Shown: one piece after another, positions 5,254 through 46,701 of the stretch
Layout: every line of letters starts with the position of its first letter
Position numbering within the stretch: position 1 is the first letter of the stretch
NCBI RefSeq assembly: GCF_964204645.1
Contig: NC_134029.1
Span: 23,430,950-23,494,949 of the forward strand
Length of the DNA stretch: 64,000 bases
DNA from: Tubulanus polymorphus
Lineage: Eukaryota; Animalia; Nemertea
Reading direction: 5' to 3'
Notes under the pieces: model-generated
What the model was told of the DNA's origin: nothing
The model's database searches: none
What the model saw: the letters and a program-made list of their open reading frames with translations, nothing else
Position numbers and translations under genes: made by a program

Positions 5254-5383
5254 GATGTGAAAGAAGAGAAATTGAATCGCAGGGAACAAAGATTCCAGGC
5301 GTTCGCCTCCACTGAGTATGACGGTAATATTTACATGACTCCGCAAGATTTCTTGGAAAGCGTAACAGAAGGAAAACCTAGAC
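5254..5383 (+). CDS. MICU3: MICU3-like mitochondrial calcium uptake protein, first coding exon visible in the window (DVKEEKLNRREQRFQAFASTEYDGNIYMTPQDFLESVTEGKPR)
   Basis: Acceptor tttttcag and donor gtaagc, phase 0 to 1. The translation carries the MICU family motif RF..FAS.E..G..YMTP.DFL. Confidence 0.93.
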
Positions 5384-8153: not shown

Positions 8154-8860
8154 TCAACACAGACATAGTGTTTGATGAAATGCTGAAATGTTCATCCACT
8201 ATTGAGAATTGTAAAAGTGTTGAGAGCTGTACTTCTTTTTAATCCGATGTTTACTAGCATGTAATCATCGCATTAGTGTTCAGTTTTCAATAACATAAAA
8301 AAAAACCTCGAGCTCTTCGTATTTTCAAAAGGGAAACCTCTACAATATACACACACGAGTAACTGATACACGCGCGGCCACCCACCACACTTCTTTGATC
8401 CTTAACCACAAAATGCTACTTAACCGTCAACTGGCTGTTTGCCATCAGGCATTAGGGTTCAAGGAGCCGTAATTTCTATCGTTTATGTCAGATTTTTTCT
8501 CGGATTTGTTGTTTATCGACGTTCGTTAAGTAGAAAATAACAACACTGTTAATATTTACCATTTCTACGGTTATTGTGATTTACACATGCACGTTAATGT
8601 ATAATCTGTTTTAAGACCCTCTCTCCTCTCCTCTCTCTCTCTTTCTCTCTCTCTCTCTTTCTCTCTCTCTTACTCTCTGTCTCCTCTGGAATATATCGTA
8701 TCTTTTATGAACTATTCTTGAACTTCGACGGTATAGAAAATGGGAAATTTATGTGATAGAAAGGGTTCCTAGTTTATTATCTGTCTGTTCTGAGATTTCT
8801 ATTAAATCCCATCATCAAAAACAGAAACAGAAAAAAATAAACATATCCGAAATATTTGGT

Positions 8861-8963
8861 CCAGTTCCACAGTTCTGAGTTAAGATCCGACATTAGAGTT
8901 AACTCATTGAAAATGAACTAACTTTAACTCAGAGTTAAGTCTAACTCACAACTGTGGAACTGG
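8861..8963. mobile_element. Short palindromic MITE-like repeat, family A
   Basis: Terminal inverted repeats CCAGTTCCACAGTT...AACTGTGGAACTGG. Near-identical copies at 11371-11484 and from 25285. Confidence 0.8.
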
Positions 8964-9167
8964 GCGATGTTGTTTCTCCACAATGTTTTAATATTGATTT
9001 GTTTCCTAAGGTTTTTGGTCTCCTTGCGAGAGCTTCTTCAGTGAATGGGCTAATATAGTTAATGAAATCAGTTAAATACAAAAAAATTATGACTGTTAAA
9101 CTGATATAAACCTCAGTATTCTGAGTTCATATCATTATCATATAGTTTACCATTAAAGAAGGCGATA

Positions 9168-11370: not shown

Positions 11371-11484
11371 CTGGGTCCAGTTCCACAGTTCTGAGTTAAG
11401 ATTTGATCCTGGGTTAACTCATTCAAAATGAACTAATTTTAACTCAGAGTTAACTCTAACTCACAACTGTGGAACTGGGTCCTG
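11371..11484. mobile_element. MITE-like repeat, family A
   Basis: Terminal inverted repeats CCAGTTCCACAGTT/AACTGTGGAACTGG and the same internal sequence as 8861-8963. Confidence 0.8.
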
Positions 11485-11958
11485 AGCTTTATTCCAACAT
11501 TAAACATTGTTGAAGAAATTTTCAAGTTTCCAATGAAAATAATGTGAGTTGGGGGAGTTCATAAAGTTTATGATTTAAGATGATTGTCAACCTGCTGCCT
11601 TCAGTTTTCTTCCGGAAGCCGCCGCTGGCTACGAATTTATATGAGCAATTCCTTTCCTTCTCTTTTGGACTTTAAATCTTTTCAAGATCTACTAATGTCT
11701 TGGTCTAGAATGTTGGTAAAAATGCCCCGGGAAATAATGTCCCGGAAAATGTGTCCCAAAATGTGTCAAAAAAGAGCTTAAATTAGAGCTTATTAACAGT
11801 TTATTTTCATTCACTGAGGCGACAGTGAAGAAATCGGAATTTCGAAAAACTTTTTGACTAATTTTTGCTTCGAAAAAATTATCCATTGATTACGGCATTA
11901 TTCGCGGGAATTATGACATCATCATCGACGAGGAGGCTGGAGTCTGGAATCTGTTAAT

Positions 11959-13509: not shown

Positions 13510-13557
13510 GTCTGATATCCTACACCGAATACCTGTTCCTCCTCTGTGTTTTAACCA
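13510..13557 (+). CDS. MICU3: MICU3-like exon (GLISYTEYLFLLCVLT)
   Basis: Poly-T then ag acceptor and gtaagt donor, 48 nt, phase 1 to 1. Highly conserved GxISYTEYLFLL motif. Confidence 0.95.
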
Positions 13558-13693
13558 GTAAGTATCTTTTATAAAACATTAATTGTTCTCATTTTTAAGT
13601 ATTTAATTTTTCTTATCATAAAAGCGTGTATCATTAGAAACTGTCGGTGTGAGGAGTTCATATTGAACCATGGACGTATATAATCTAGTTTAC

Positions 13694-13980
13694 AGCCGCG
13701 ATCACATGGAGATGATTTGGCGCGGGTCAAATCGGCACGGATGAGGTTCGCGCCAAATTTGGCCCGTGTCTAATTAGAGAGCGTGTTCGCACGCAAACCA
13801 TTCATTCGATACTAAACAATGCTCAAACAAAGCGAAGTGGATCATTTCCGGTGCCAGTTGCAATTCAAACGCAATCATTTGTCTTGTGCTAAAATTTGGC
13901 TCGGGCCTAACAGGCTCGGGCCGATTTGGCACCCGTGTGAACAGTTGTTCCGGGCCAAAAATGCTCGCGTGATCGCGGCT
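13694..13980. mobile_element. MITE family B, possibly a PIF/Harbinger-type non-autonomous DNA transposon
   Basis: Terminal inverted repeats AGCCGCGATCAC...GTGATCGCGGCT with internal (A)TTTGGCCCG repeats. Related copies at about 4927-5150, 30362-30400 and 56437-56636. Confidence 0.75.
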
Positions 13981-15691
13981 TACGTCGATGATTGAACCCA
14001 GTTAGTGTGTGGTATAAGCTGCCTACGCTATACTAGTATAGTACGGTGATTCTAATGATGTTCAATGAAGGTAATCAAGTTTTTCAGGTGGATGTGGTTT
14101 CAGTATTTATCTGTCTGGTTTTAGAACAGCACGCCGTATTTTACTTTCATCTTGTTTCTACTCATTGAACTGTTTTCCTCACGTTCGATTTGCTCTACTT
14201 CTACCGGGACCCGAGCGAGGCCACTCTAGTTAGTAACGTTTTCTGAGAGATTGCACTTGTTACACCGATTTCCTCATTCTTCTCATTCTTCTCCGTGTTT
14301 TCTGAAGGCCGACGGTATTTTTATCGAATGAAATTTTCGATCCACTAAAGATTTGATGACTAGTAGTATAGTAGAAAGGACAATAGACACTCTCAAACTT
14401 TGTGAATAGATGTTGTAATTGAAAGCTGCTATGATACACATTAATAGATTAAAAAAGAAATTTATCAAGAGATCGATTGATTTTGAAAAAAAGATTCTAG
14501 ATTTAGGTGTCTCACCACCTGACAATGATCTTTAGTGAGAGTCTATGATGGTTTCTATAAACAAGTGACTGTCTGATATCAATAAAATCAAAACCTACAA
14601 TAAAATGAAAAAAAGTTAGTAAAGAATCAGACTCAATCCTTTGAGCCATTTTCAAAAGCCACAGCATGTATATAGAAATAGCTAGAATGCAGTAATGTCA
14701 CTCATGTACAAAAATGCTAATTCTTTGGGTTTTTCAATAAACTTTGAAAATTGTTCACCGCCTTTGGACATTCTACTCAAATTCCTGGTCATTTATTGCT
14801 GCATTTGAAGGCTGTAGGTGCCGTGGTTTTACTCACGGTCAATTATAGTGTGATAGTGGGTTTTATCTCTAGAGTCCGAGATGTTGTGTCTTTTTTTATT
14901 TCATTTATTGATCGCTTATAAAGTTTTTGATTTTTTAATTTCATACATTATGGGTTTTGAGTATATTCAATAAACTGAATGTGGGGTCTCTTTCAATCGG
15001 AATGTCAGTAGAAAATAAATACCGCGGGGGAAAACGTTCTCAATGGACTAGGAAATGAATCTACGAGACGCTTGAAAAAATGGCATAGCGCGTCTGAGTT
15101 GTGCGGCAAAAATAATTCGACATGTTCACAATATGGCGGTGTGGGTGAACTCAGACAGATAGTGCCCACAAGGTGTATGGGAAATGTGTTAATCATGGTA
15201 ATTATTGATATTGTCTGGGTTTAATTTGAACTCAGGGTGGTACAGACCAGTCAGTGCAGTCTCTACAACAGGAAATTACTGACTGTATTACATAGTTTCA
15301 ACTTTAATCTCCTATCGACATGATTTAATGTTTTCACACGTTTTTCTTCCAACCAGCAACTTCTATTACCGGTTGCGCTTTAAATGATTATTCTTACGAT
15401 ATCAATTTATATTTGAATGTTCAGGGTATTATACTACCGGTTTGTTGAACTGGTCTCTGTCGCCACTGCTACGCCTAATAAGTGCCTTTATCAGGTGGTT
15501 GTTGGGCACCAGCGATGAAATGGGACCTCTCTCTGTCAGTAATTCTGCTCTCTGGGACAGACAGGAGAGGCTATATCTCTTTCTTTGCGTCCACAGTGAC
15601 AGTAGGGTTCTTCGCAGGATTATTTTTGGCAAGGCTACGCTACATAGCTTGATTAATTCTTCAAAAGATCAATAGATTAATTTTGTATTCA

Positions 15692-15738
15692 TTATTCCTG
15701 AAGATGACTATTAGGATATAGTCGAAACGTTGAAATAA
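15692..15738 (+). ncRNA. Minimal type I hammerhead ribozyme motif of the Penelope-like retroelement type
   Basis: Core CTGAAGA at 15698-15704, one extra T, perfect stem II GACTAT/ATAGTC with a TAGGAT loop, GAAAC-GTT with palindromic AACGTT in place of stem III, and stem I TTATTC/GAAATAA with one bulge. Confidence 0.65.
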
Positions 15739-17406
15739 ACTACTATCTCGAAGTTTCATTTTCGGACTTTTTATTATCATTGTTGGATTCTCTCCTCACA
15801 GATTAATTTTGTGATTGCTATTTTGTATTGCCATAATATTTCGCGTTATACAAGTACGTTATATTTGTACGCTGTACTTAGTACAGAGTTACAATAGAAT
15901 GAAATGAATATAATTGGTTGAAATCGCAAAATAATATTTTGATTGCCGTGTGTCCATATTAATCCGAAGGTAATATTTCGATATTTGTGAATTTCACCTA
16001 ATTATGATAACCCTGCAGGTAAGCTGTATTGTAGTGCTTATATATACACAATTGAAAGCACTTGAATTAGTTCAATTGGTCATTAAACTTAATTCAATAG
16101 TAATGAATAGACACTGTCCACATGTCTGAACTCTCAAACTGTCTGCTATGGACCACTTATTGTCCAGGCCAGCGCGCCGCGCTGTCAGTGTGTGGGTGTG
16201 CATTATATAACTTACTTGTCACGAATGGAATAGTTTTATGGCTTTGAGCGATCTTTCAGTCACCGGACAAAGAACCCGCTGCCTGATCTAACGCCTATAA
16301 TTTATGATGGCCAGACAGCATGATGTATTTATTATATGCATTGATTTGCACCGTAATCATGGGCGCATTAAGTTTAGTAGATTAGTAAAACTAGCCCGGT
16401 GGTCCGTGGAGTGAGTCGTCGAGTTGGTGCCTCCTCCCCATTGATGAAGCTCTAAGGGTTTTTTCAGATATCTTGGATGACGGATCCGCTGATATGTTAT
16501 GTGAATTTTTTTAAAATTTTTCCCTTCTCCCCGGAAAATATGGCTGTTAAAGATCCAATGTGCCAGACATGCATTGACACAGGGAATGAGTTCAATCACA
16601 GCTAACTTTATACATAATACACATTCTGTTCGATAAATTATAACATTTCCATCTAATGATTTCTTTTCTAATTTTTTCTCGTCTCCCCTCAGATATTTAG
16701 TTTGATGGTATTGGTACAAAATATGATTTTTCTTTTAATATTTTGCCCTTCCTGGAAATGACCCTGATAAGATCAGCCATCCAAGTTATCCATACGAAAG
16801 ACCTTCCCGGTGCTCGATGAAGAATCGATGATCGACGATCATTTTTATCATTTTTTTTCTCGATATTTTCTGTTCCCTTATTATTTTCATTATCTTCATT
16901 ATTTTACGCGTTATTTATCAGATTCCGCTGACGTCGAACGGCCGTGGGAAAAACAGCTTAGATATATGAAACGCCGGCCAGTTGACCGTAAGAGAAGAGT
17001 GTCTATCAAAAGTAGTTTGCACTTCGCATCATTTCTGAAAACATAGAAAGATCCGTTGTCGCTTTCACTCATTTCTAACAAAGGCTTATTTTATGTCGTT
17101 TCGAGCGTTAACCGCTGCATGGTGTCGTCGTTTTAAAAAATATTCAATTTTCTAACCCACAACTCACAGTTTTCTTCGTCTCATTAACAGTCAATAATAA
17201 ACGCCAGAACTGTTATTGAGAAAAAGTCATTCGTTAAATGCGTTATCCGCGAAAAATTCCTCAACCGGTATTTATGTTGTCGTTTTCAAAATCTGATTCC
17301 ATTCTGAATGTTTTGTAGTCATTTTATTGTATTTGATGAAATTCAATAAAAGCAGGGACCGTTCATTGTTTTCACTGCTAGGATTGTGGCAGCACTATCT
17401 AGTACA

Positions 17407-17458
<52 letters not shown>

Positions 17459-17463
17459 ATGAT
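17407..17463. repeat. (CTG)n(ATG)n microsatellite
   Basis: Directly visible, about 250 nt upstream of the EF1 exon. Confidence 0.9.
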
Positions 17464-17711
17464 CGTGCATTTATTGTTGCTTATTTGTCTTTTCTCCACA
17501 TCTTTTTACTCATTATTGTTCCCTGCATTTCTTCTGTTCTGAATTCTGTTCGTTTTGATTCCTCGTTTTCTAACCATTTTATATGATTTTTCTACTAATA
17601 ATTCTTGATTTTTATAAAGTATCCTCATAATTTTAATCGTAAGTTGTTTTTCCTTGTAACAACATCGTTTTTGAGTTGAAGCTGATATTTCATGATCTGC
17701 TGATTTTTCAG

Positions 17712-17794
17712 AACCGCAGTCAGGATTTCGTATCGCGTTCAACATGTTCGACACCGATGGTAATCAGAAAGTTGACAAGAAAGAATTCCTCGTG
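17712..17794 (+). CDS. MICU3: MICU3-like exon encoding EF-hand 1 (KPQSGFRIAFNMFDTDGNQKVDKKEFLV)
   Basis: Acceptor tttttcag and donor gtacgt, phase 1 to 0. Canonical EF-hand loop DTDGNQKVDKKE. Confidence 0.96.
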
Positions 17795-17973
17795 GTACGT
17801 GTTGTTACAGTAATCAATTATTAACTTATATTTTAACGAAAATAATCTGTAAACTAACATACAATTAATTAACCTTTAAATTCAAAGCTTCGACTTATAG
17901 AAACTACGAATAATATCGCTTACTTAATATAGAATATTTAGATACTCAATAACTTACAAAATGATATCATCTT

Positions 17974-17977
<4 letters not shown>

Positions 17978-18023
<46 letters not shown>
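17978..18023. repeat. (TA)n microsatellite
   Basis: Directly visible. Confidence 0.95.
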
Positions 18024-18025
<2 letters not shown>

Positions 18026-18758
18026 CAAATAGAATATACTTCTGTCAATTTGCGGCATGATAAATTCTGTATTTTCACAAACGAATGCTAGTTTTGCTTA
18101 TAGATCTAGCTACATGGAGCCACAAAGTCCCCCTGGAAATCTAGAATATAGTCTTCAGTTAAACCTGGGACTTATTTGTCCTAACACAATTTTCCTTTTA
18201 TGGAACCAATATACGCGAGATAAGTTTCTCTCCCCCCCCCCCCCCGAAGATGATAAATTGACTTCTTGGTAACTTTTTGACTATTTGACTCAGGTCTAAA
18301 AATAAGACGTTTCATTATGAAGTAACTGGATCTCGTACCGAGCGGTCAGTGTTTGTGTCCTCGGTAATATAACATCAAACTCTTCCCTTCGTATCAGTGA
18401 ATATTGATCTAAAATTGTAATGAGCTTATCCTTATCCTGAGTGTCCTAAATTTGATACATGCTTTAATTATCGAATGTGCATTAGTTTGACTGCCGTGGT
18501 GAGGAATGTCCCCTATGAATTGTTTGTCCTGATAATCTATTTCACCATCCATAGATCCACTTACACCGCGACAGTTCACTCGCATCAATTCACTTCTGGT
18601 TGAACTAAGTTAAATACATCCGTTTAGGCGTGTCTGCTTTAGGTTATTAAATTCATGTTTGACCATCGATGAATGAAACCTTTTCTTGCTATTGCTCGGG
18701 TAGTTGCTTTAAACTGCTTTTTCAACGCAATCTAGTCCTTAATCATAATCAGTCAGTA

Positions 18759-18960
18759 ATGATCATCAGAGATCATGATCACCAGAGATCCGGGTCATTC
18801 AAGAGATCATGATCATCGGAGGAGATTGTGATCACCAGTGATCCCAATCATCGGAGATCATGATCATCAGTGATCTGGGTCATTCAAGAGATCATTATCA
18901 TCAGAGGAGATTGTGATTACCAGAGATCCTGATCATCAGAGATCATGATCGTCAGAGATC
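18759..18960. repeat. Degenerate GATC-rich tandem repeat (GATCATCAGAGATCAT variants)
   Basis: Repeated gatcatgatcatcagaga-like units with a larger duplicated block (gggtcattcaagagatcat...ggagattgtgat). Confidence 0.85.
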
Positions 18961-19415
18961 GCGGTATAATTGATCATGTTACTGGTGAACAGCGATCCTC
19001 ATACAATCGTACTACTTATTTCAAAGTACTGTATCCGATCATTTACGATTGTCTGAATGTAAATATATGTAGTTGATCACTGCTGATCACGTTTTCTTTC
19101 CCAACGTGGATCGTTGATTGCGAATGAATGTCACACCGTTTTAACTTGTTACTCCCGACTGCCTCGAAGGTTCGTGTCCAATGGGTGAAAGTTGAACCTG
19201 TAAGAAACTGATCTCGCGACGATCGGTAGTTTATTAGTTTCTCTGTTTTCCGTTGCGACTGACTCTAATATTGCCTGATTTATGTCATTTGCAAACAGTT
19301 GGAGGGAGTAATCCGGGCAACTCGAGCTGAACGTAATCGCCAAGCACTCTCACAATCGGATTCTCCTGTGAGTCTCACACAAATCACCACCGCCACTTTC
19401 TCTCTCTATTGTCCA

Positions 19416-19729
19416 GTTCACAACGTTCGAAGTTTAGTCCGTTCCAATTTAGAATGGACCGAATATTCACATTAACAAAAAATCTGTTCTTTTTGACAAT
19501 GGAAGTTTATACCGCCGACCATACCATCCGCATCCAATTTTTAGAACGGACCAAATGGAAATTTTGCTTTAATTGTCCGTCAATCACAGTGTTGTGTCAA
19601 GCTGGACCAGTGATATTGGCTGATTTAAAAATGCACAGCATTGATTTGGTCCATTCTGAATTGGTCCACTTCAGGTGCGGGCCAAATTTGAACGGACTAA
19701 CTAACTTGCGATAGTGTGAACGAGGCTTA
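19416..19729. mobile_element. MITE family C with imperfect long terminal inverted repeats
   Basis: Left end gttcacaacgttcgaagtttagtccgttccaattt is the imperfect reverse complement of right end aaatttgaacggactaactaacttgcgatagtgtgaac. Confidence 0.6.
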
Positions 19730-20280
19730 TCACTTCTTTTTCACAGTCAAGTCTCGACTTGCAACAATAACGGTGAAATCAACAGTCTTCCGACCAACTG
19801 GACATTTGAAAATTATTGAATAATTGAAAATGAAAATTCCAAAAGTCGAGCCAAATTTTGCCTTCGTCAAACGGGCACGGATCGATCGGGCGACGATGTA
19901 AACGACTGGCCCCGGTTAAAATCGATCGTATGATCGCGAAGCTGATGTGTAAACAACTGATCCGACGCGGATTAAAATTCTACGCCCTGCGGTAAGTTTC
20001 GACAAAACGGTCGTGATTTTTAATTCGGGTCGGTTCATTTGTATTCACCGTTTAATGCAAGAAATTTCTAGTTTAAATGTGGCTACACTCTTTTTAGTTT
20101 TAGAATTACACGATCAGATCAGCTGCTTTCCATTGCAGATATTCCACATTTATTCGTGCGTGTTGTTTGTCTTTTTTCGACGATTACAATTCGAGGTTTT
20201 ATCCCTCGTTTAGAATTTCAAAACACGATTTAAAATAGCTACTTTTTTTCGTTTATTTTTTAATTTTAATTACCGTTCAG

Positions 20281-20298
20281 TTGGAGTCGATATTCAAG
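20281..20298 (+). CDS. MICU3: MICU3-like 18-nt microexon, alternative A after EF-hand 1 (LESIFK)
   Basis: Long T-rich tract then cag acceptor, gtaaga donor, phase 0 to 0. It continues EFLV into LESIFK, matching the L..IF[RK] exit helix of MICU3 (human EFLVLQEIFRK, from recall). Confidence 0.8.
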
Positions 20299-21730
20299 GT
20301 AAGATTTTGAGAAAATTGTGACGTCACTTTTTTTGGTTTTAGGTTTTGTTTGAAGGTATTTCTTTTGATGTGTTTGAATTTGGATGTCTATTAGTTACGG
20401 TCACGGTGTGTTTCACTGGTCACTATCATGTTTCTATTCGGGTGGTGAAATTAATGACAGTTCGGTCTGTCAGATGATTTGCCAGGTTTGGTCATCAATC
20501 AGGAGACCTTTGACCTTTTTTGAAGTTGATGTACGTTAAAGTTCAACACGTGTTAATTAAATGAATACATGTACCTTGGAATATGTGATATTGTGCCAAA
20601 ATTTTAACGCTACCCATTTACGAAAAAGTGGTTAACGAATGTTAATAAGAACCAACGTCAAAAGCCGAATAAGTACTTTTTATATATGATTTAGTTCATT
20701 ATTTGCTGCTGAGGTATGAACTAGTTTTTGGAAATGTAAAATTTTTACCGCGCTTATAGAGCTCTTAGGTTGAATCTGTGAAAAGCTCTAGGACCATCGT
20801 GTTCGTGAACTATTAGCCTTGTCGTCGTTCGTACTGTTTGCTCTTTTACTACGCGGCGCAAGAAGTGCAGTTATTGGGCTTCGGCTTGATGTGCTTGAAA
20901 TCTGAATAACGAATCAACTTCACTAAAAATGCATTCATAGCGTCCAATGTCGTAGATAGATCAATATTACACGGTAAAGAATGTACGTAAGTTTGTGTAG
21001 TATCCGAGAACCGTGTCAGTAAATCCCATCGGACTAACGTCATACTTTTCTCTAGCGTCAAATTTGATATATCTGATTCCTCGAGTCTGAAACGATGTTG
21101 ATCTGTCTCTCAACGAAGCCCACGCACGCATCGGGTCTCCCAAAAACCCATAAATCCTCACTGGCACGGCCCACGCTTTCTACCTACGCGTCTCTTCTTT
21201 ACGTTTTAATTAAATGTCAGATTGTGATAAAAAGTTTTATTCATGGTTCTTAATCATATTTGCTACCGACTGCGGCAACGGTTTATTGCGTCGGTTATGA
21301 TCGCAAAGGACGATCAACATTTATAACTCTAAGCAGCTGGTCTGATAATTAGTTCCATAGGTTTAGTTGTTATTATTGTTTAATCCAATCTCAGTGATTT
21401 CATTCATTTATTTTAATTGCGTTTGATTTTTTATTTCGCGTTTGATTTTTGTCCGTTGAGCTAATATTTCACTCGCGCTCGAATTTCACGGTTTAGTCAC
21501 AAATCATTTAGAAAAATGTGTAATATATTATGCTTCAATGATTTGACAAATTTGTACTGGTTTTTGCTTGTGTGATCTGCCTATAAATGGACTTCTGGCG
21601 CAATAGCAGTATTTTTCCCCAATATTTGATAGGCGATTCTCCAGTTTGATGCAGATGGAGTTTATGATGACGTCATTTTTCGCAAAAAGTTTCATAATTT
21701 TTCGGTTGTAAAATGCGAAAATGTTTCATT

Positions 21731-21925
21731 CAGTCTTTGATGGCTGAGATTAAGTCGATTGTGCAGGCTGACCAGTCTTTGATGACTAGGATTGAGTTGA
21801 TTGTGCAGCTGATCAGTCTCTGATGACTAGGATTGAATCGATTGTGCAGGCTGATCAGTCTCTGATGACTAGGATTGAATCGATTGTGCAGGCTGATCAG
21901 TCTCTGATGACTGGGATTGAGTCGA
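21731..21925. repeat. Minisatellite with a 42-bp unit CAGTCTCTGATGACTAGGATTGAATCGATTGTGCAGGCTGAT, about 4.5 copies
   Basis: Direct tandem repeats visible in the sequence. Confidence 0.9.
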
Positions 21926-22289
21926 TGCGATTGCTCGTGACTGGATTTTCTGCGACCATCAGCGACGGGCGCATCTCAAAGACCCGTCAACCTTACGCAT
22001 CTTTGTTACTTGCACAGTGACACCGATCGCAATGAGTCTCACACATTCAACTCTAGGAGATGCTACTTCTCTCTAGTCGCACACCATCGCAGACAGTCGT
22101 CGTTCAATCGCGCCGATTAGCGACCAGTTACAACCTCGTTGCCTATCGGTTTGATGATGATTATATTCCCAGTGATACTGATTAAAATACCTTCGATCTG
22201 CGCATTCTTGCTTTCTCCGTTTTTATTTCACTTCTCAATGTTATTCATCTCGCGATATCTATATCTCTTTGTATTTATTTATTTTTTAG

Positions 22290-22358
22290 TTACAGTATTT
22301 GATTGGCGTGAAGTTACGAGGAGTGTTTAACTATCCCAATCTTACCCCGATTCAACAA
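22290..22358 (+). CDS. MICU3: Candidate MICU3 alternative exon B (LQYLIGVKLRGVFNYPNLTPIQQ)
   Basis: Pyrimidine tract then tag acceptor, gtatga donor, 69 nt, phase 0 to 0, no stop codon. Starts with TTACAG like exon C. Confidence 0.5.
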
Positions 22359-24294
22359 GTATGAAAACTATCATCTTTCCAATATTGTTCGTTTGTTGCT
22401 AAATCCGTTTTACCCCCCCCCCCCACGCCCCTCATTATATTCATTAGAATCAACTGTGATTTATTGCTACTTAAAGAACACCATTATGATTATTCTGATT
22501 TTATGAAAATTTTCGCTCCCCTGCTGGCAATATTTACCCATTGAAGTAAATAACTTGGATGAGCGAAAACTATTTTAGCAGCAAACGGTCGGTATTCCCT
22601 GGAATGACCAGCATGTCTGCCCGGTTTGTCATTATTGCATGGTCTGTCTTTAAATAATTGGATGATTATTTATAGCCTGATGAGATGATGAATATTCCTA
22701 GTCCTATTGTTACCCTGTGGACAATGGATTAATGAAGTTTCTTGTGATTTAGTGTTAGATAGATAGATAGTTAGATACCTCATTATAAACAACTGTTATT
22801 CAGATAAAGTTTAATTAAACATGATTTCGAAGCTATATTTATATATTTGTGTAATATATTTGGTTATGGATCCTCCTGAATAGAAATGCATTGAAGACTT
22901 GTATTTACTCCAGATTATTACAGGTATTAATTTGCAGCCATTCGTACATTCACCGGTTTATAGTTTGATGTTTTGGCTATCAGTTTTTGAAAATGTGCCG
23001 ATAAGATGGTTTTTGTGGTTCATTTTCTCTCGGGGGGAAGTTCAGCTGCGTATTAATACCTGCGCATATCACCTGTGTCTCCTGTCAAAAGAAACAAAGG
23101 GTTATAGATATTAATTTACATCCATCTATGGAAGATATAAGTTTATATTGCTCTTTGTCAAATCTTGGAGTAATCATTTGTCAAATGATTACTCCAAGGT
23201 CAAATCATTAGCATGATATATATTTTCTGATTTTCAGGCATGGAGTTTTCACGTCTTGAGTAATACACAATGACAATGTTTCCCTATTTAGGTGTTTGTA
23301 TAAAAATCCCTTTTTATGCAGTTGTTGAATCCGTTGTCTGGAATTTTAACTGTACAGCTCGAAAAATGTCTACTTAAACTCGCTATACAGAAATGCTCAC
23401 ATAAAACCAGTCCATATATGAACTAAATGTTGTTTTTTAAATTTTTTTCTAAACGTGTGGCACTCCTGTATGTAATCACTCGCGTCACGACTATTGAAAC
23501 AAGTGACATTAAGATAGGTATCTGTCCCATTCACACAAGTGTTATTACTGATTGTCGGCGTGGGTGGTTTTGATATAGCGGGGAAAACCCTTCCATAAAC
23601 CTACCGATTACTCTGAAATCTATCAGCTGTTGAAATGAACTTTTTTCTCAGACTATGCCCAGGTTACGAAGTTTCTTCATTTCGTACCTTTTAACGTCAT
23701 ATGCAAAATTTTCAACTCGTAAACATATGAACCGTCATGTGAAAAGTACCAGCGACCTTGACATTTAGCCAGTAAAAATGGTTTTGTCAAGTATTACGCC
23801 CGAAGCGTTTGAAACCCTTTTTGCACCGAGGGAAATTTGACATTTCAATTTCGGTTTTTTAATTTAGCCGAATTTATAAAGATTAAAATGTCAAACGATT
23901 TAGGCAACGCATTTGTTATTGTTAGCTAGGAAGGATTATTACTGATAATTGCCTCCCAGTGAAACAGCAAATCCATCTTCTAATCGCTCACAGACATTTT
24001 CTTTACTCCCTCTAAAGCTTCAGGGCATATATTCTAGACTTCAGCAAAATGAAAATGGCAACTGCGTGCAATGCTAAATCATGGAAGATCACACCCGTTT
24101 GGAAAACAATACAATTCTTTACAAAGTTTAATGTAAAATTTCCATCTATATTCGATTTCACATATTGACATGGGAAGGTGGAGGACCCTCGATCGTTCCG
24201 CTTCACGAGAAACCCCTCAGAACCGTGAATTAGTTGTGCGTGGTCGTGTCTGTCACTGTCTGATGATTGACATGTTGTTGTTTATGAATCTTAG

Positions 24295-24417
24295 TTACAG
24301 TTTCTTGTCAGTAAGTTTCTGCACCAATCATTGAATCCGTACAGAAGACGTAACAGACCCGCTTCAAACGCGCAAACATCGTCACCATCCTCATCATCGT
24401 CATCGTCGTCGAATATT
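24295..24417 (+). CDS. MICU3: Candidate MICU3 alternative exon C (LQFLVSKFLHQSLNPYRRRNRPASNAQTSSPSSSSSSSSNI)
   Basis: Acceptor cttag and donor gtatgt, 123 nt, phase 0 to 0, no stop codon. Caveats: weak pyrimidine tract and an internal out-of-frame GTAAGT at 24311. Confidence 0.45.
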
Positions 24418-25284
24418 GTATGTACACGTGTCAGTGCGCCACCTATTATCCGATTTTCATATTCGTAAAAATAGTCGCTTCAATTTTTCTGATCTTTTTC
24501 ATTCTCCTTTTGATAGCGTGTGACCTGTGTTTAAACTGGGACCCGATCGGGCTTCATTTAAAATTCCGAATTTACGATATAAAATAATAAATTCAATAAT
24601 TTCACTCGTTCGGGCTGAATTGATTATATGAAAATGGATGGCTCCGAATATACCCTAATTTGGGTATTCATAGTCCCACCCATTACATGAACGGATTGGT
24701 CCAAATATCCTGGTTTAAACGATGGCTCACACACTCCTTTACTCAAATACGTATGTAATTCTACTAACATTTTCTATACTCGTGACGGAATATGTATTGA
24801 GCGAGCAACATCAACAGCAGCGGGGCGGTGACTGAGAGAATATTGAAATAATGATCACTAATGTGGTCGCTTTCATCTCATCCATTTTCATTTTGTTTGT
24901 AAAAAACGATCGCAAACAAAATGATATCATTGAATTTACTGAAGGTGTCGCTAATTATGACGCATTATAAATATACTCGTACATAAATGAGATGATTTTA
25001 TGTGTCCTATTTTTATGCTTGATTAATCTGTATTTTTTTTATATCCTGTTTTGGTTTTCAGTGATGTGACTTCCCGATCCAAAATTAATTCCTACCTCCC
25101 TTGTTGACTGCATTTTTCATGCAAATTTGTATCCGTTCAAATTCTGTAGCGAATTCGCAAGATATCGGTATACCATCGCCGTAACTTAAAGCGCTACAAT
25201 TAATTGAAATTTCAAATTCGGAATGAACGGTCGAATCTTAAGTGCTGCTTTTAAAGAGTGATCGTCGAAAGGTTTTATGGGTTG

Positions 25285-25938
25285 CAGGACCCAGTTCCAC
25301 ATTTCCGAGTTAAGATTTGACTCAGAGTTAACTCATTGAAAATGAACTAATGTAAACTCTAACTGACCACTGTGGAACTAGATCTTGAGTTCAGAGTAAA
25401 CTCTAACTGACCACTGTGGGACTGGATCCTGAGTTCAGAGTTAACTCTAAATGACCATTGTGGAACTGGATCCTGAGTTCAGAGTAAACTCTAACTGACC
25501 GCTGTGGAACTGGATCCTGAGTTCAGAGTAAACTCTAACTGACCACTGTGGAACTGGATCCTGAGTTCAGAGTAAACTCTAACTGACCACTGTGGAACTG
25601 GATCCTGAGTTTAGAGTAAACTCTAACTGACCACTGTGGAACTGGATCCTGAGTTCAGAGTAAACTCTAACTGACCACTGTGGAACTGGATCTTGAGTTC
25701 AGAGTAAACTCTAACTGACCACTGTGGAACTGGATCCTGAACTGACCACTGTGGAACTAGATCTTGAGTTCAGAGTAAACTCTAACTGACCACTGTGGAA
25801 CTGGATCCTGAGTTCGGAGTAAACTCTAACTGACCACTGTGGAACTGGATCCTGAGTTCAGAGTAAACTCTAACTGACCACTGTGGAACTGGATCCTGAG
25901 TTCAGAGTAAACTCTAACTGACCACTGTGGAACTGGAT
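25285..25938. repeat. Family A MITE whose right end is amplified into a tandem array of a 44-bp unit (about 13 copies)
   Basis: The unit GAGTTCAGAGTAAACTCTAACTGACCACTGTGGAACTGGATCCT recurs at 25387, 25431, 25475 and onward, with one truncated unit near 25740. Confidence 0.9.
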
Positions 25939-26225
25939 GCCGGTTGATAACTGCACTGGTATAATTTGCTACAGGGTTTGAATCCAGTTGTCGAAGTGGT
26001 TTCTTATTTAGTCGTATTTTAGTCTAGATTTTTCAACCTCTCAAACGCGAAACCACTTCGACAGCTGATGGTCTAAATCGTCTCGGTCGGTGACCAGTTT
26101 GTTTTTCGATTGTTGTTTCCGCGAGTTTTTTTCTCTGCCACACGACGAGGAACATGCGTTAATACATTAAACTGCGCTTTCACTAATTAAATCTGAGTTG
26201 TATTTATTTATTCTTATTACTGCAG

Positions 26226-26342
26226 CTTTCACGGATATTCGGTAGTGTACCCAACGATGACATCACTAACCTGCCCGATTCACCCGATTCACAAAACGTT
26301 GATGATACACCTAGAGAACGGCAAATAGGAACTATATGGGAT
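26226..26342 (+). CDS. MICU3: Candidate MICU3 alternative exon D (LSRIFGSVPNDDITNLPDSPDSQNVDDTPRERQIGTIWD)
   Basis: Branch-like cactaat, T-rich tract, tgcag acceptor and gtaggt donor. 117 nt, phase 0 to 0, no stop codon. LSRIF aligns with LESIF of exon A. Confidence 0.62.
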
Positions 26343-28039
26343 GTAGGTTGATTAATGCACTGTACACCACAGTAAAGATGACGCACACACGTCTTATCCG
26401 TATTCATCGAGTTCTCTAAAAATCACTTTATTATACAAACTGTATATTTATGACTGTGCCTCGTTTTTGGAAGTTTTTCAAATTTATGATCTGTACGGCG
26501 ACAATTTGTCTCTAAAATTTCGAAAACGTGTGTTGAAAGCGCGGAAAACGAAATGACATTTAAGAAAAAGAAATTTACTGTGTGTAGGTTCTTATTTATT
26601 ACGTTATTGGTCTAAAACGCGTTCAGTTTTTTGTTTTTGTTTTTGATGCGGCCACACAAGATCTGCTACTATTCCAATTACGCTCAAAATTTATATATTT
26701 ATATATCGTCTGTTGGCCTTCGATACAGACATATAGTGAGACAGACTTTGTAACCGTGTATCTGATCGCGCTGTCAATTGCCAGGAAGAAAAAAAAACGT
26801 TTAAAAGTTAAAAGCCCTATCTGAAAAACCTTTTGATATCGTGGCGTAAAAAGGGCAAATTCCACGCGAAAGTCTGGACCCATAAATCCGTCTGATTCTT
26901 TGATGATTTTTGATGTTTGTAATCTTTATGACGTGATCAGATATTCGGCTGAAAAATAACAGTCCAATAAATAAGAATCTGGACACAGACGTATAGTGGC
27001 TTTTGGACCGATTAAAAACAACAATGACGAAAGTATTGATGCCTTTTACATGTGCATTGTTTGAACATTGCATCAATCGGAAACCTGTTCGTGCTGAGGT
27101 TAGAACGATGTTTAAAACGGAGAAATCTGGAAAAAGCTCAGAATTTCTCATTTGAACTGAGTTTTGAATAGTTCTTGTTTTGCTGTATAAAAAATTTACA
27201 CGTGTTTGAACACCTTTAACTAACGTTAATGATCTGTTATGCTTAAACTATTCGCTGCTACTAAAGAAATGGCTGAATGAAAAAATCTGCATGAATGGTG
27301 TCGGGTTGGAATCTTTTTCGTATCGAAAGTTGATAATGTTTTCAGCGGCGAAATTGTGTAAATGACGATAGCGCAAATAGAAACGACTGGATCGTTGTTT
27401 ATTTTCATCTGAATTTGCAAAATAATTGATCGTTAAAACGTTTAATTCGTGCCCTGGATGATATTTTGCCTGGATAATCTACTTTTTAAAGAAGTCCTAC
27501 TTTCTGGCTATTTATATGTATTTAGATAACTTTCTTCGCAAAATACACCGTATTTGGATTTACGAATGATCTATCGATTGACAGCGACGATATTCCGTTG
27601 AACTCGAGGAGTTATCTATAGTCATACACGCAATATCGCCGCCTCGTTGAAATAGACTCACGCGATTAGTTTTCGTTTTATCGTTCATAAATATCATTTA
27701 AAATATGAAACTACGCGTTCAATTTGATATTAACTAAAAAGTTTTAAGATGTGGACGAAATTAGGGAAGTCAAGGGCGTGGCCAGTATGTAAAACTGTCG
27801 ACACGATATAAATACACCACAGTTATCCCACAATAATTCAGCCAAAGATGTTTAGTTCTCGATGAAGTAAAAATCCTTTACTAAAGAACTTTACATTTCT
27901 GGCTGAATTATTGTGGGATATTTCTCTCGTAAACAGTATAGGACCCGGCAGGCTACACTGTTATGGCCAAGTCATCATTATCAAAACACCTTGAATTAAT
28001 TCAATCCGTCGCTTGACGAATTTACAGTGTAAACTATTA

Positions 28040-28122
28040 GGGATCGTTCATTTATTACCTACGCGGCCGATTCTGGCCTGAAAAAGTCAAATTTCATGCG
28101 TACTTAAAAAAATGAATGATCC
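28040..28122. mobile_element. Deleted copy of MITE family D
   Basis: gggatcgttcatttattac...aaaagtcaaatttcatgcgtac...aatgaatgatcc matches 31147-31310. Confidence 0.7.
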
Positions 28123-28298
28123 ACGTTAACTCTTTTTTTAATTGTTTTTAAAATGATGCTAAGATAATGTTTGTAATATAGACGTATTTCAAATTATCGT
28201 GCCTACAAATTGTCAAAATTCTGGCTACGTCCGTGGCAGGTGTTTGTAATATAAACTGCTATTTCACCGATCTGATGATTGCTGGCCTTGTTTTTCAG

Positions 28299-28316
28299 GA
28301 CTCAACAAACAAGGAG
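28299..28316 (+). CDS. MICU3: MICU3-like 18-nt microexon (DSTNKE), copy 1
   Basis: Branch-like ctgat, ccttgtttttcag acceptor and GAG/gtaaaa donor, phase 0 to 0. Fits the polar linker between the EF1 exit helix and VDTNID. Confidence 0.6.
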
Positions 28317-28541
28317 GTAAAAATATTGCAGTGGTGGTGAATGATTTCTTTTTTTGCCGTCAAAAATGATGCTCGAAATACGTCGAAATTTATCGATTAT
28401 GAAAGTATCATTTCTGACCCATTTCTCTTATAGTCGAAGCCCGAAAAAATCTAAACGAATACTGGCAAAAAAATTCGATTATTTCGACGAATCGCCGCAT
28501 TACTAGTTCTAGATTTAAATACCGGTGGCGCCTCAGTCCAG

Positions 28542-28679
<138 letters not shown>

Positions 28680-28685
28680 TTTCAG

Positions 28686-28703
28686 GACTCAACAAACAAG
28701 GAG
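28686..28703 (+). CDS. MICU3: Duplicate of the DSTNKE microexon, copy 2 (upstream branch region replaced by a TA tract)
   Basis: Identical sequence and splice dinucleotides 387 bp downstream of copy 1, inside a tandem duplication. Confidence 0.3.
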
Positions 28704-28928
28704 GTAAAAATATTGCAGTGGTGGTGAATGATTTCTTTTTTTGCCGTCAAAAATGATGCTCGAAATACGTCGAAATTTATCGATTATGAAAGTATCATTT
28801 CTGACCCATTTCTCTTATAGTCGAAGCCCGAAAAAATCTAAACGAATACTGGCAAAAAAATTCGATTATTTCGACGAATCGCCGCATTACTAGTTCTAGA
28901 TTTAAATACCGGTGGCGCCTCAGTCCAG

Positions 28929-29093
<165 letters not shown>

Positions 29094-29826: not shown

Positions 29827-29930
29827 GTTGATACAAATATTGATATAACGGAAGTTCCCGACACGACGCTGTTGATTCATTTCTTCGGATCGAAGGGACG
29901 CGATACTCTTAATTACAAAGATTTCAGCAG
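29827..29930 (+). CDS. MICU3: MICU3-like exon (VDTNIDITEVPDTTLLIHFFGSKGRDTLNYKDFSR)
   Basis: Acceptor ttgaag and donor gtgagg, phase 0 to 2. DTTLL.HFFG..G...L...DF.R motif. Confidence 0.92.
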
Positions 29931-44984: not shown

Positions 44985-45726
44985 CTAAACGACGTCATCC
45001 TGATCGATAGCGCAATTTGTAAGATGCACCTCTTCAGTATTAGCCGTGATTTGACCTTGGTTATTTGCCGATCGGACGCCCAGCCGGGTTCCATTCTGCG
45101 GCGGGTTCGAATCTTTACGAGTCAGTCGGCGGCAGCTAGGGAACGATTTCAGTAGGAATTCTTTCAAATGGTCGTTTATCATGAGACACATGAATGTATT
45201 AAAAACTCCGCTACTTAAAGCGACAGTTTCGATCGGGTAGTAGATCGTCATTTCTTTGAACGGTTCAAATTCTTCGATCCACCTCGAGTCGAGCACGTCT
45301 CTGTTAAATATGTAAATTTGATAAGGCAACCAACAAATAGTGAACACCAAAACGACTGCGAATAACTTCAGAATGATCACCTTCCGGTGTGCGAAATTAG
45401 CGCGCATGCGCTCAGCGGAGGTGGTTCCGACGAGTGGACGTGTCCAGATTTTAAGGCCGATGATCAAATACGAAACTGACATTATGAAGAGCGGTAGAAC
45501 ATACTCTATACCAATTAACACAAATAATGAATACTGTTTTAAACTGATGAATGTTCCGTGAGCCCATTCGGTCATACATAAGCACTTTTCCTTGTGGCAG
45601 AATGTCCTCGAGAATAGTACTCTCGGTACAGCAAATATTACGGACACGACCCAGATTAGCACGATAGCTATCCCTGAAGCGCGTCGGCTCATCGTACCCA
45701 GAAGAGGGAATAACACAGCTCGCAAT
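44985..45726 (-). CDS. Terminal exon (end of TM3 to C-terminus) of a class A rhodopsin-family neuropeptide GPCR, tachykinin/leucokinin/RYamide-receptor-like and divergent
   Basis: On the minus strand a (CT)n tract plus ttcag acceptor enters at phase 2 within the DRY-position Arg codon (R|LRAVLFPL). It then encodes TM4 IWVVSVIFAVP, the ECL2 Cys (CMTEW), TM5 YVLPLFIMSVSY..IGLKIW, TM6 FTICWLPYQIY and TM7 ALSSGVFNTFMC. The first 26 aa of ORF 44985..45806 are intron read-through. Confidence 0.9.
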
Positions 45727-46701
45727 CTGAAACGAGAGAGAGAAAGATATTGTTTGCAATCGTTTTGATAGTCGGGGACAAGTGGAATGCACGCTCCTCG
45801 ATACACAGGGTGTCAGCGATACGACAGCGATACGACAGCAGATTGCGGTGAATTAACTGTTATTACAATTCTATGAAAATAAATCGCTAGTACGATTTAA
45901 TCGTAAATCACTAGAAAATGAAAACGAATGGAGCATTTAAAGCGAATGGTTTTACGGATAGTGGGCAATTACCACTAACGAATGATAAAACGACGTTATT
46001 CACGAGTATAACCTCGTCTAGTAGACATTCGACGAACGCACGCGATCTTTGCACTTTTAAAGAATGAAAAAAATACCAGTCATAAATCGACGTTACGAAA
46101 TTACTACAGCGAACCTCGCCTTTCACAGTCAGACACGGCCTACTCTGACTTTTGACTACTCGGACAACACCGAAAAATTATTTTCTAATTTTGTAACGAC
46201 CTTTAACTCGGAATTTTACTTAACGGATCAATTTGGCCGTTCCCAGTCTGCCTGAGCTAGGTTTACTGCATTAGTTTATCATATCAAAGAAGAACATAAT
46301 ATTGTATGGCCGATACAAAACCTGTAGATATTCAATAGTAGGCCTGCAGTATATATATATATCAAAGTATATATTAAAGTATATCAAAATCTTGTTCGGA
46401 AAACTATGATTTTCAAATAAAAATGTCAGATTTGTTAATTGTATTAGTTCTTTTCTAATTAAGGCGCCTTTCTGATCCCATGGCCGCTACACCATTCTAC
46501 TCCATGCTACGGACGGGGGGTAATCGTACATGTTACTTAAAACCATTCTCACACATAGAAACATTTTTACACGAGAAACAGTTTACCGACGAAGAACAGA
46601 CGGCAAAGGCTTAAGGAAAAACTGACTGATTATACATGTATAAATATTAAGTACCGGAAAGTAAACGAAATTGTAAATGAAAATGTATTTTCTTAATAAG
46701 A

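Follow-up and report, generated by a model that had tools for sequence, protein, structure and literature searches.

Optional in-frame exons of a nemertean MICU3 gene probably supply alternative second halves of the EF-hand 1 exit helix

Introduction

The MICU3 gene of the nemertean Tubulanus polymorphus raises the question of how a protein helix is completed when an intron appears to interrupt it and several downstream exons could each carry it on. The question arises in a 64,000-nucleotide stretch of genomic DNA, analysed here as a whole and called the window, where the exon for EF-hand 1 (EF1) is followed by four short segments, A to D, before the next constitutive exon. An earlier note had proposed that these segments are duplicates of one another and mutually exclusive. 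We find that A to D are optional in-frame exons that can be spliced serially. The first one included probably finishes the EF1 exit helix and the rest lengthen the linker, likely tuning Ca2+ sensing or MICU1 contact.

Results

A MICU3 gene with an exon end inside the EF1 exit helix

The gene occupies the forward strand of the window from at least position 5254 to about 31800. Its predicted protein matches EF-hand Pfam families and contains the EF1 and EF4 loops. The closest solved structure is that of human MICU3 (6agi), which is the top match both in a PDB sequence comparison (E 2.1e-110) and in a Foldseek fold comparison. Over a 59-residue downstream exon, identity to Tubulanus polymorphus proteins annotated as calcium uptake protein 3 is 100%. 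The product belongs to the MICU2/MICU3 family and is closest to MICU3 by sequence and fold, and the earlier identification of the host gene as MICU3 is upheld.

The EF1 exon is entered by a joint from 13557 to 17712 that is present in two sequencing runs, X2 and X3. As the earlier note had described, it ends in phase 0 at position 17794, midway through the exit helix, and the splice sites, lengths and translations of A to D all agree with that description. The exons are as follows.

17712..17794, forward strand: constitutive EF-hand 1 exon, with a phase-0 end in mid exit helix at EFLV
20281..20298, forward strand: cassette A, an 18-nt micro-exon (LESIFK), predicted helix donor; joined with E in RefSeq isoform X12
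22290..22358, forward strand: cassette B, 69 nt, 23 aa, predicted helix donor; joints EF1 to B and B to D in run X2
24295..24417, forward strand: cassette C, 123 nt, 41 aa, basic and Ser-rich, predicted helix donor; in RefSeq isoforms X2 and X4
26226..26342, forward strand: cassette D, 117 nt, 39 aa, with a C-terminal IWD; joints EF1 to D, B to D and D to E
28299..28316, forward strand: cassette E, an 18-nt linker micro-exon without the helix motif; joint D to E in run X2
28686..28703, forward strand: second copy of cassette E, read from the sequence, within a 301-nt identical repeat between AT runs
29827..29930, forward strand: next constitutive exon (TTLLIHFFG), from the gene map

Each of A to D lies between an AG acceptor and a GT donor, is divisible by three in length and is free of stop codons in frame 0. 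All four are phase 0-0 exons with GT-AG introns, and the introns between them measure 1808–1991 nt. Their donors do not fit the U12 consensus. Cassette E is also optional, RefSeq isoforms X2 and X4 differing in its use. The 301-nt repeat (28289-28589 and 28676-28976) doubles this micro-exon together with its splice sites, with AT runs between the copies, and is either a true duplication or an assembly artefact; AT runs are found from 28543 onward. The intron between C and D holds a 44-nt tandem array (25273-26026) of 14 overlapping family copies, which is high-copy in the runs, and similar sequence lies near 8860-8965 and 11375-11485. Downstream of MICU3, a long open frame on the reverse strand (44985-45812) has a rhodopsin-family 7TM match (PF00001, E 9e-18).

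The exons are used or skipped, singly or jointly

Three coded runs contain the gene (X1, X2 and X3), none of them recorded as RNA. Run X1 covers the introns continuously. Because GT..AG introns that X1 covers are missing from runs X2 and X3, with the breaks at gene-model boundaries, we infer that X2 and X3 are spliced RNA. The table of joints for positions 17650-28400 in these two runs is complete at five rows, the fifth being one 80-nt non-splice difference. In run X2 the joints have depths of 169.5 (EF1 to B), 92.6 (EF1 to D), 119.1 (B to D) and 239 (D to E), contig depth being a poor and rough guide to expression level. Run X3 has the EF1-to-D joint at a depth of 13.9, on a contig that leaves D without a joint to E. 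Cassette B is both included and skipped before D in run X2. The B-to-D joint is in frame, has GT..AG boundaries, and comes from one contig of this one run.

No joint for A or C appears in runs X2 and X3, whose assembled contigs drop rare variants, and one X2 contig covers C unspliced. Both exons enter solely through RefSeq models, which are predictions that may combine introns never co-occurring, and which have the same exon boundaries as the contigs. Of the RefSeq isoforms, which number at least 13, five were examined (XP_074651350, 352, 358, 361 and 362), and these comprise C+D+E, C+D, B alone, A+E and E alone; C is joined to D in RefSeq isoforms X2 and X4, and B stands alone in RefSeq isoform X9. 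With contig joints for B and D, and RefSeq models for each of the four, the earlier view that A to D are alternative exons holds. The array is one of combinatorial cassettes: symmetric in-frame exons that are used or skipped, singly or jointly.

The exons have a common start that would continue the helix

The start pattern L-x-x-hydrophobic-hydrophobic that had been noted for these exons is present in all four. Each opens with Leu and has hydrophobic residues at positions 4 and 5, and position 4 is Ile or Leu in every case. Hydrophobic residues at positions 1, 4 and 5 occur in 28 of 331 stop-free, AG-started frames between 17800 and 29800 (8.5%). When candidate exons were filtered for splice sites and lengths divisible by three, the motif was present in 5/7 inside the cluster versus 0/18 in control regions, and with looser thresholds in 6/17 versus 2/40; the thresholds were chosen so that A to D pass, so both contrasts are inflated. 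One further candidate lies upstream of A.

19299-19367, forward strand: candidate cassette Z, 69 nt, 23 aa, LEGVIR start, with a CAG acceptor and a strong GTGAGT donor

Candidate Z opens with the first six bases of A and fits the motif, and one candidate of this kind would be expected at random with a chance of about 23%. It has no joint in runs X2 and X3, one X2 contig crossing it unspliced; it is absent from the five of at least 13 RefSeq isoforms examined and has no counterpart among the cassettes of Lineus, a second nemertean. From its sequence, Z is a possible fifth, unannotated helix-start cassette, and we treat it as a lead.

AlphaFold models bear out the proposal that these exons can continue the EF1 exit helix, for B and C. 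The predicted helix runs on into C in the C-first (C+D) protein (residues 192-205) and into B in the B-first protein (residues 192-201), with local pLDDT near 70 and a bias in the models, since the canonical helix already occupies these columns in the alignments. Residues 204-276 of the C+D model, which include the start of D, have pLDDT below 50. Cassette D is predicted to be a helix donor if it comes first and linker if it is placed after B or C. Donors and non-donors could not be told apart by hydrophobic moment (C 0.22, F 0.27), and this measure was left unused.

In the alignment register, the last residue of the EF1 exon corresponds to human MICU2 Lys199 and cassette position 4 to MICU2 Ile203. 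The available part of PMC7055370 places both residues in interface 2 with EF-hand 3 of MICU1, and the available part of PMC7434445 describes the interface residues as conserved in MICU3. Judged from these human structures, cassette position 4 would be the equivalent of the MICU1-contact residue Ile203. All four exons have Ile or Leu here, so the contact would survive and the changes would fall on its neighbours and the linker.

These observations suggest a simple mechanism. The intron would split the EF1 exit helix, and each cassette would offer its second half; whichever cassette is included first would supply that half, and any that follow would add length to the flexible linker. With the helix cut in this way, an exon upstream of D would be retained only if it is helix-completing. 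Such a first-in rule would produce exclusivity in the protein, with one donor per molecule, that is absent in the RNA. Skip-all models without any helix donor, which are present in several species, count against the helix-donor rule.

Helix starts recur at the same place in other animals

We fetched 242 proteins, of which 226 have a parsable linker from EF1 to TTLL; the other 16, with partial sequences or a variant loop, were dropped. There are 69 distinct hexamers after EFLV in the 226 proteins, and the motif is found in 52 of them, against a background of 203 in 8982 other linker positions (2.3%). Of the 17 hexamers without the motif, ten mark the beginning of a downstream exon in a skip-all form, which leaves seven genuine exceptions. 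Isoform subtraction over 33 hand-chosen species groups identified optional blocks with a motif start in Lineus, decapods, a grasshopper, flies and the majority of molluscs and of chelicerates, occurring singly or in stacks. Outside Tubulanus, the motif is present in 12/16 upstream cassette types versus 0/9 downstream types (Fisher p 5e-4), where upstream means 5' of the last canonical block and each type was sorted by hand and counted once per lineage, kin being not fully independent. The four upstream types that lack the full motif are from Mytilus, Biomphalaria, chiton and scorpion. Stacked forms occur in 7/10 hand-picked Logan-derived proteins, which we take to be transcripts. All 26 deuterostome rows open with a single fixed (L/M)xxIF segment.

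The Lineus set comprises motif blocks of 6, 23, 33 and 27 aa and a 14-aa block without the motif. Cassettes A and B pair with Lineus counterparts by length alone, and the counterpart of D likewise ends in IWD. Cassette C and the 33-aa Lineus cassette have 9/33 identities, with a nominal tail p of 0.011 that is uncorrected for 30 comparisons. We found no third nemertean, a search with the Lineus cassette region matching Lineus alone (7 of 169 candidates). The hydrophobic-W motif at the end of D (IWD, 26334-26342) is found again in linker sequences from Lineus, Lingula, an annelid-like entry, sea urchins and mammals, and may be a conserved contact inside an otherwise variable loop. Lineus MICU3 also has a further optional segment just before the EF1 exon and an 11-aa insert before GITF, both absent from the five of at least 13 Tubulanus models examined.

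These comparisons bear on a competing explanation, in which the motif is a survival filter on exons gained in the helix-splitting intron and the isoforms are alike, or linker length or charge alone matters. It would account for the slight similarity between Tubulanus and Lineus, whose cassettes are poorly conserved past the start except for C and the IWD end of D, for the failure of cassettes from different phyla to match by eye, and for the existence of skip-all models. Fly MICU3-A and MICU3-C, whether or not they differ in this array, are likewise reported to behave much alike, with a mild null, in the available part of PMC6506686. It sits poorly with the 27-aa upstream cassette of molluscs, which has 14 near-invariant positions over 22 variants from bivalves to octopus, and with the recurrence of the array in several protostome lineages. 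The B-first joint of run X2 is as deep as the D-first joint, as far as contig depth is a guide, and the ratios of fly CG4662 transcripts, whichever junctions distinguish them, differ by sex according to PMC1779584; both count against it as well. The available part of PMC11551757 concerns poly(A) site choice in CG4662 and not these exons. On balance, we regard tolerated variation of this kind as rather unlikely.

Mutual exclusivity in the RNA

A more restricted form of exclusivity, with A, B, C and perhaps Z excluding one another and D and E acting as independent cassettes, would agree with the lack of any A-B, A-C or B-C pairing in the five models or in runs X2 and X3. That lack is weak evidence, since A and C are unspliced in both runs and the models are five of at least 13 isoforms. 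Lineus models place the 23-, 33- and 27-aa cassettes in series and join the 23-aa and 33-aa cassettes; upstream cassettes also stack in dipterans, orthopterans and decapods; and there is neither a steric nor a frame barrier among the Tubulanus exons. We therefore consider a sub-cluster of this kind improbable. For A to D, which are all 3n and phase 0-0, we found no frame shift, short intron or U2/U12 mismatch that would enforce exclusivity, and no common docking site for selector RNA was present in the 25 longest of 111 inverted pairs.

The mutual exclusivity of all four exons in the earlier note is contradicted by the B-to-D joint (depth 119.1) and by RefSeq models with C and D together. Since B and D are joined in frame, the exons fail as a mutually exclusive cluster on the first of the Hatje et al. 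criteria, as set out in the available part of PMC5740500. The serial inclusion that was to count against exclusivity is found pairwise, as B to D and C to D; the full form, A+B+C+D in one transcript, was seen neither in runs X2 and X3 nor in the five RefSeq models. The proposed origin by duplication fares no better, with 1–5 identities in pairs anchored at their 5' ends and nothing past the start motif. Exon lengths are 6, 23, 41 and 39 aa, and the anchored identities are 1-3/6, 4-5/23 and 2/39. As recognisable duplicates A to D were rejected, their lengths and sequences being dissimilar past the start motif. The strict four-way exclusive cluster arising from tandem exon duplication is consequently very improbable, for all that A to D have a common start motif and B and C are identical at 11 of their first 18 bases, given the B-to-D joint of run X2, the C+D models, the 6–41 aa range of lengths and a similarity that ends with the start motif.

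Discussion

Serially spliced exons, the first of which would finish the helix, resemble several known systems in part. As in the mutually exclusive exon clusters described in the available part of PMC5740500, one structural element is drawn from alternative exons, and one exon per protein would fill the helix slot. Unlike those clusters, the MICU3 exons are joined in frame, spread up to sevenfold in length, and are without similarity past five residues and without a steric or frame-shift barrier. Mammalian MICU1.1, 1.2 and 1.3 (PMC8909990, available part) are also built from short in-frame cassettes, used alone or stacked, in a MICU gene, and their micro-exons alter both the affinity for Ca2+ and the activation of the uniporter; a tenfold change in Ca2+ affinity is reported there for a micro-exon of 4 aa, which falls within a disordered loop of MICU1. 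According to the same source, the loop that holds these exons is unresolved and distant from the MICU1 EF-hands, whereas the MICU3 cassettes would swap the C-terminal half of the EF1 exit helix. By analogy with MICU1.1, the choice of cassette likely tunes Ca2+ sensing or MICU1 contact.

The EF1-to-TTLL linker of vertebrate and echinoderm MICU3 likewise contains optional exons, also placed after EFL(V/L), and the W-containing motif recurs in them. In deuterostomes these optional blocks follow a fixed segment and are without the start motif, whereas protostomes exchange the very segment that bears the helix. Exons A to E are already present in predicted RefSeq isoforms, alternative splicing of Drosophila MICU3/CG4662 is already known, and splicing of stacked cassettes is itself familiar. 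The papers found on these cases do not describe a common helix start or a first-in rule. Nor did we find a description of a helix-relay or first-in layout in the open-access literature searched, subscription papers lying outside it.

If the isoforms are equivalent, the locus would document a clear folding filter on exon gain, which is of modest interest. A broader reading, which we offer tentatively as a possibility, is that protostome MICU3 is an ancient first-in switch: the 5'-most of a set of non-exclusive exons, each an alternative helix half that includes the MICU1-contact position, would fix the uniporter's Ca2+ threshold in each cell type. The first-in rule itself would give an either-or structural swap without mutually exclusive splicing, in which exon order picks the helix donor. 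Since the exchanged part of the helix would hold the counterpart of a uniporter-gate residue that contacts MICU1, the idea is testable in insects and molluscs with the same layout. Flies are without MICU2, according to the available part of PMC6506686. If the first-in switch holds, splicing in protostomes would fill the role that vertebrates divide between a MICU2 and a MICU3 gene.
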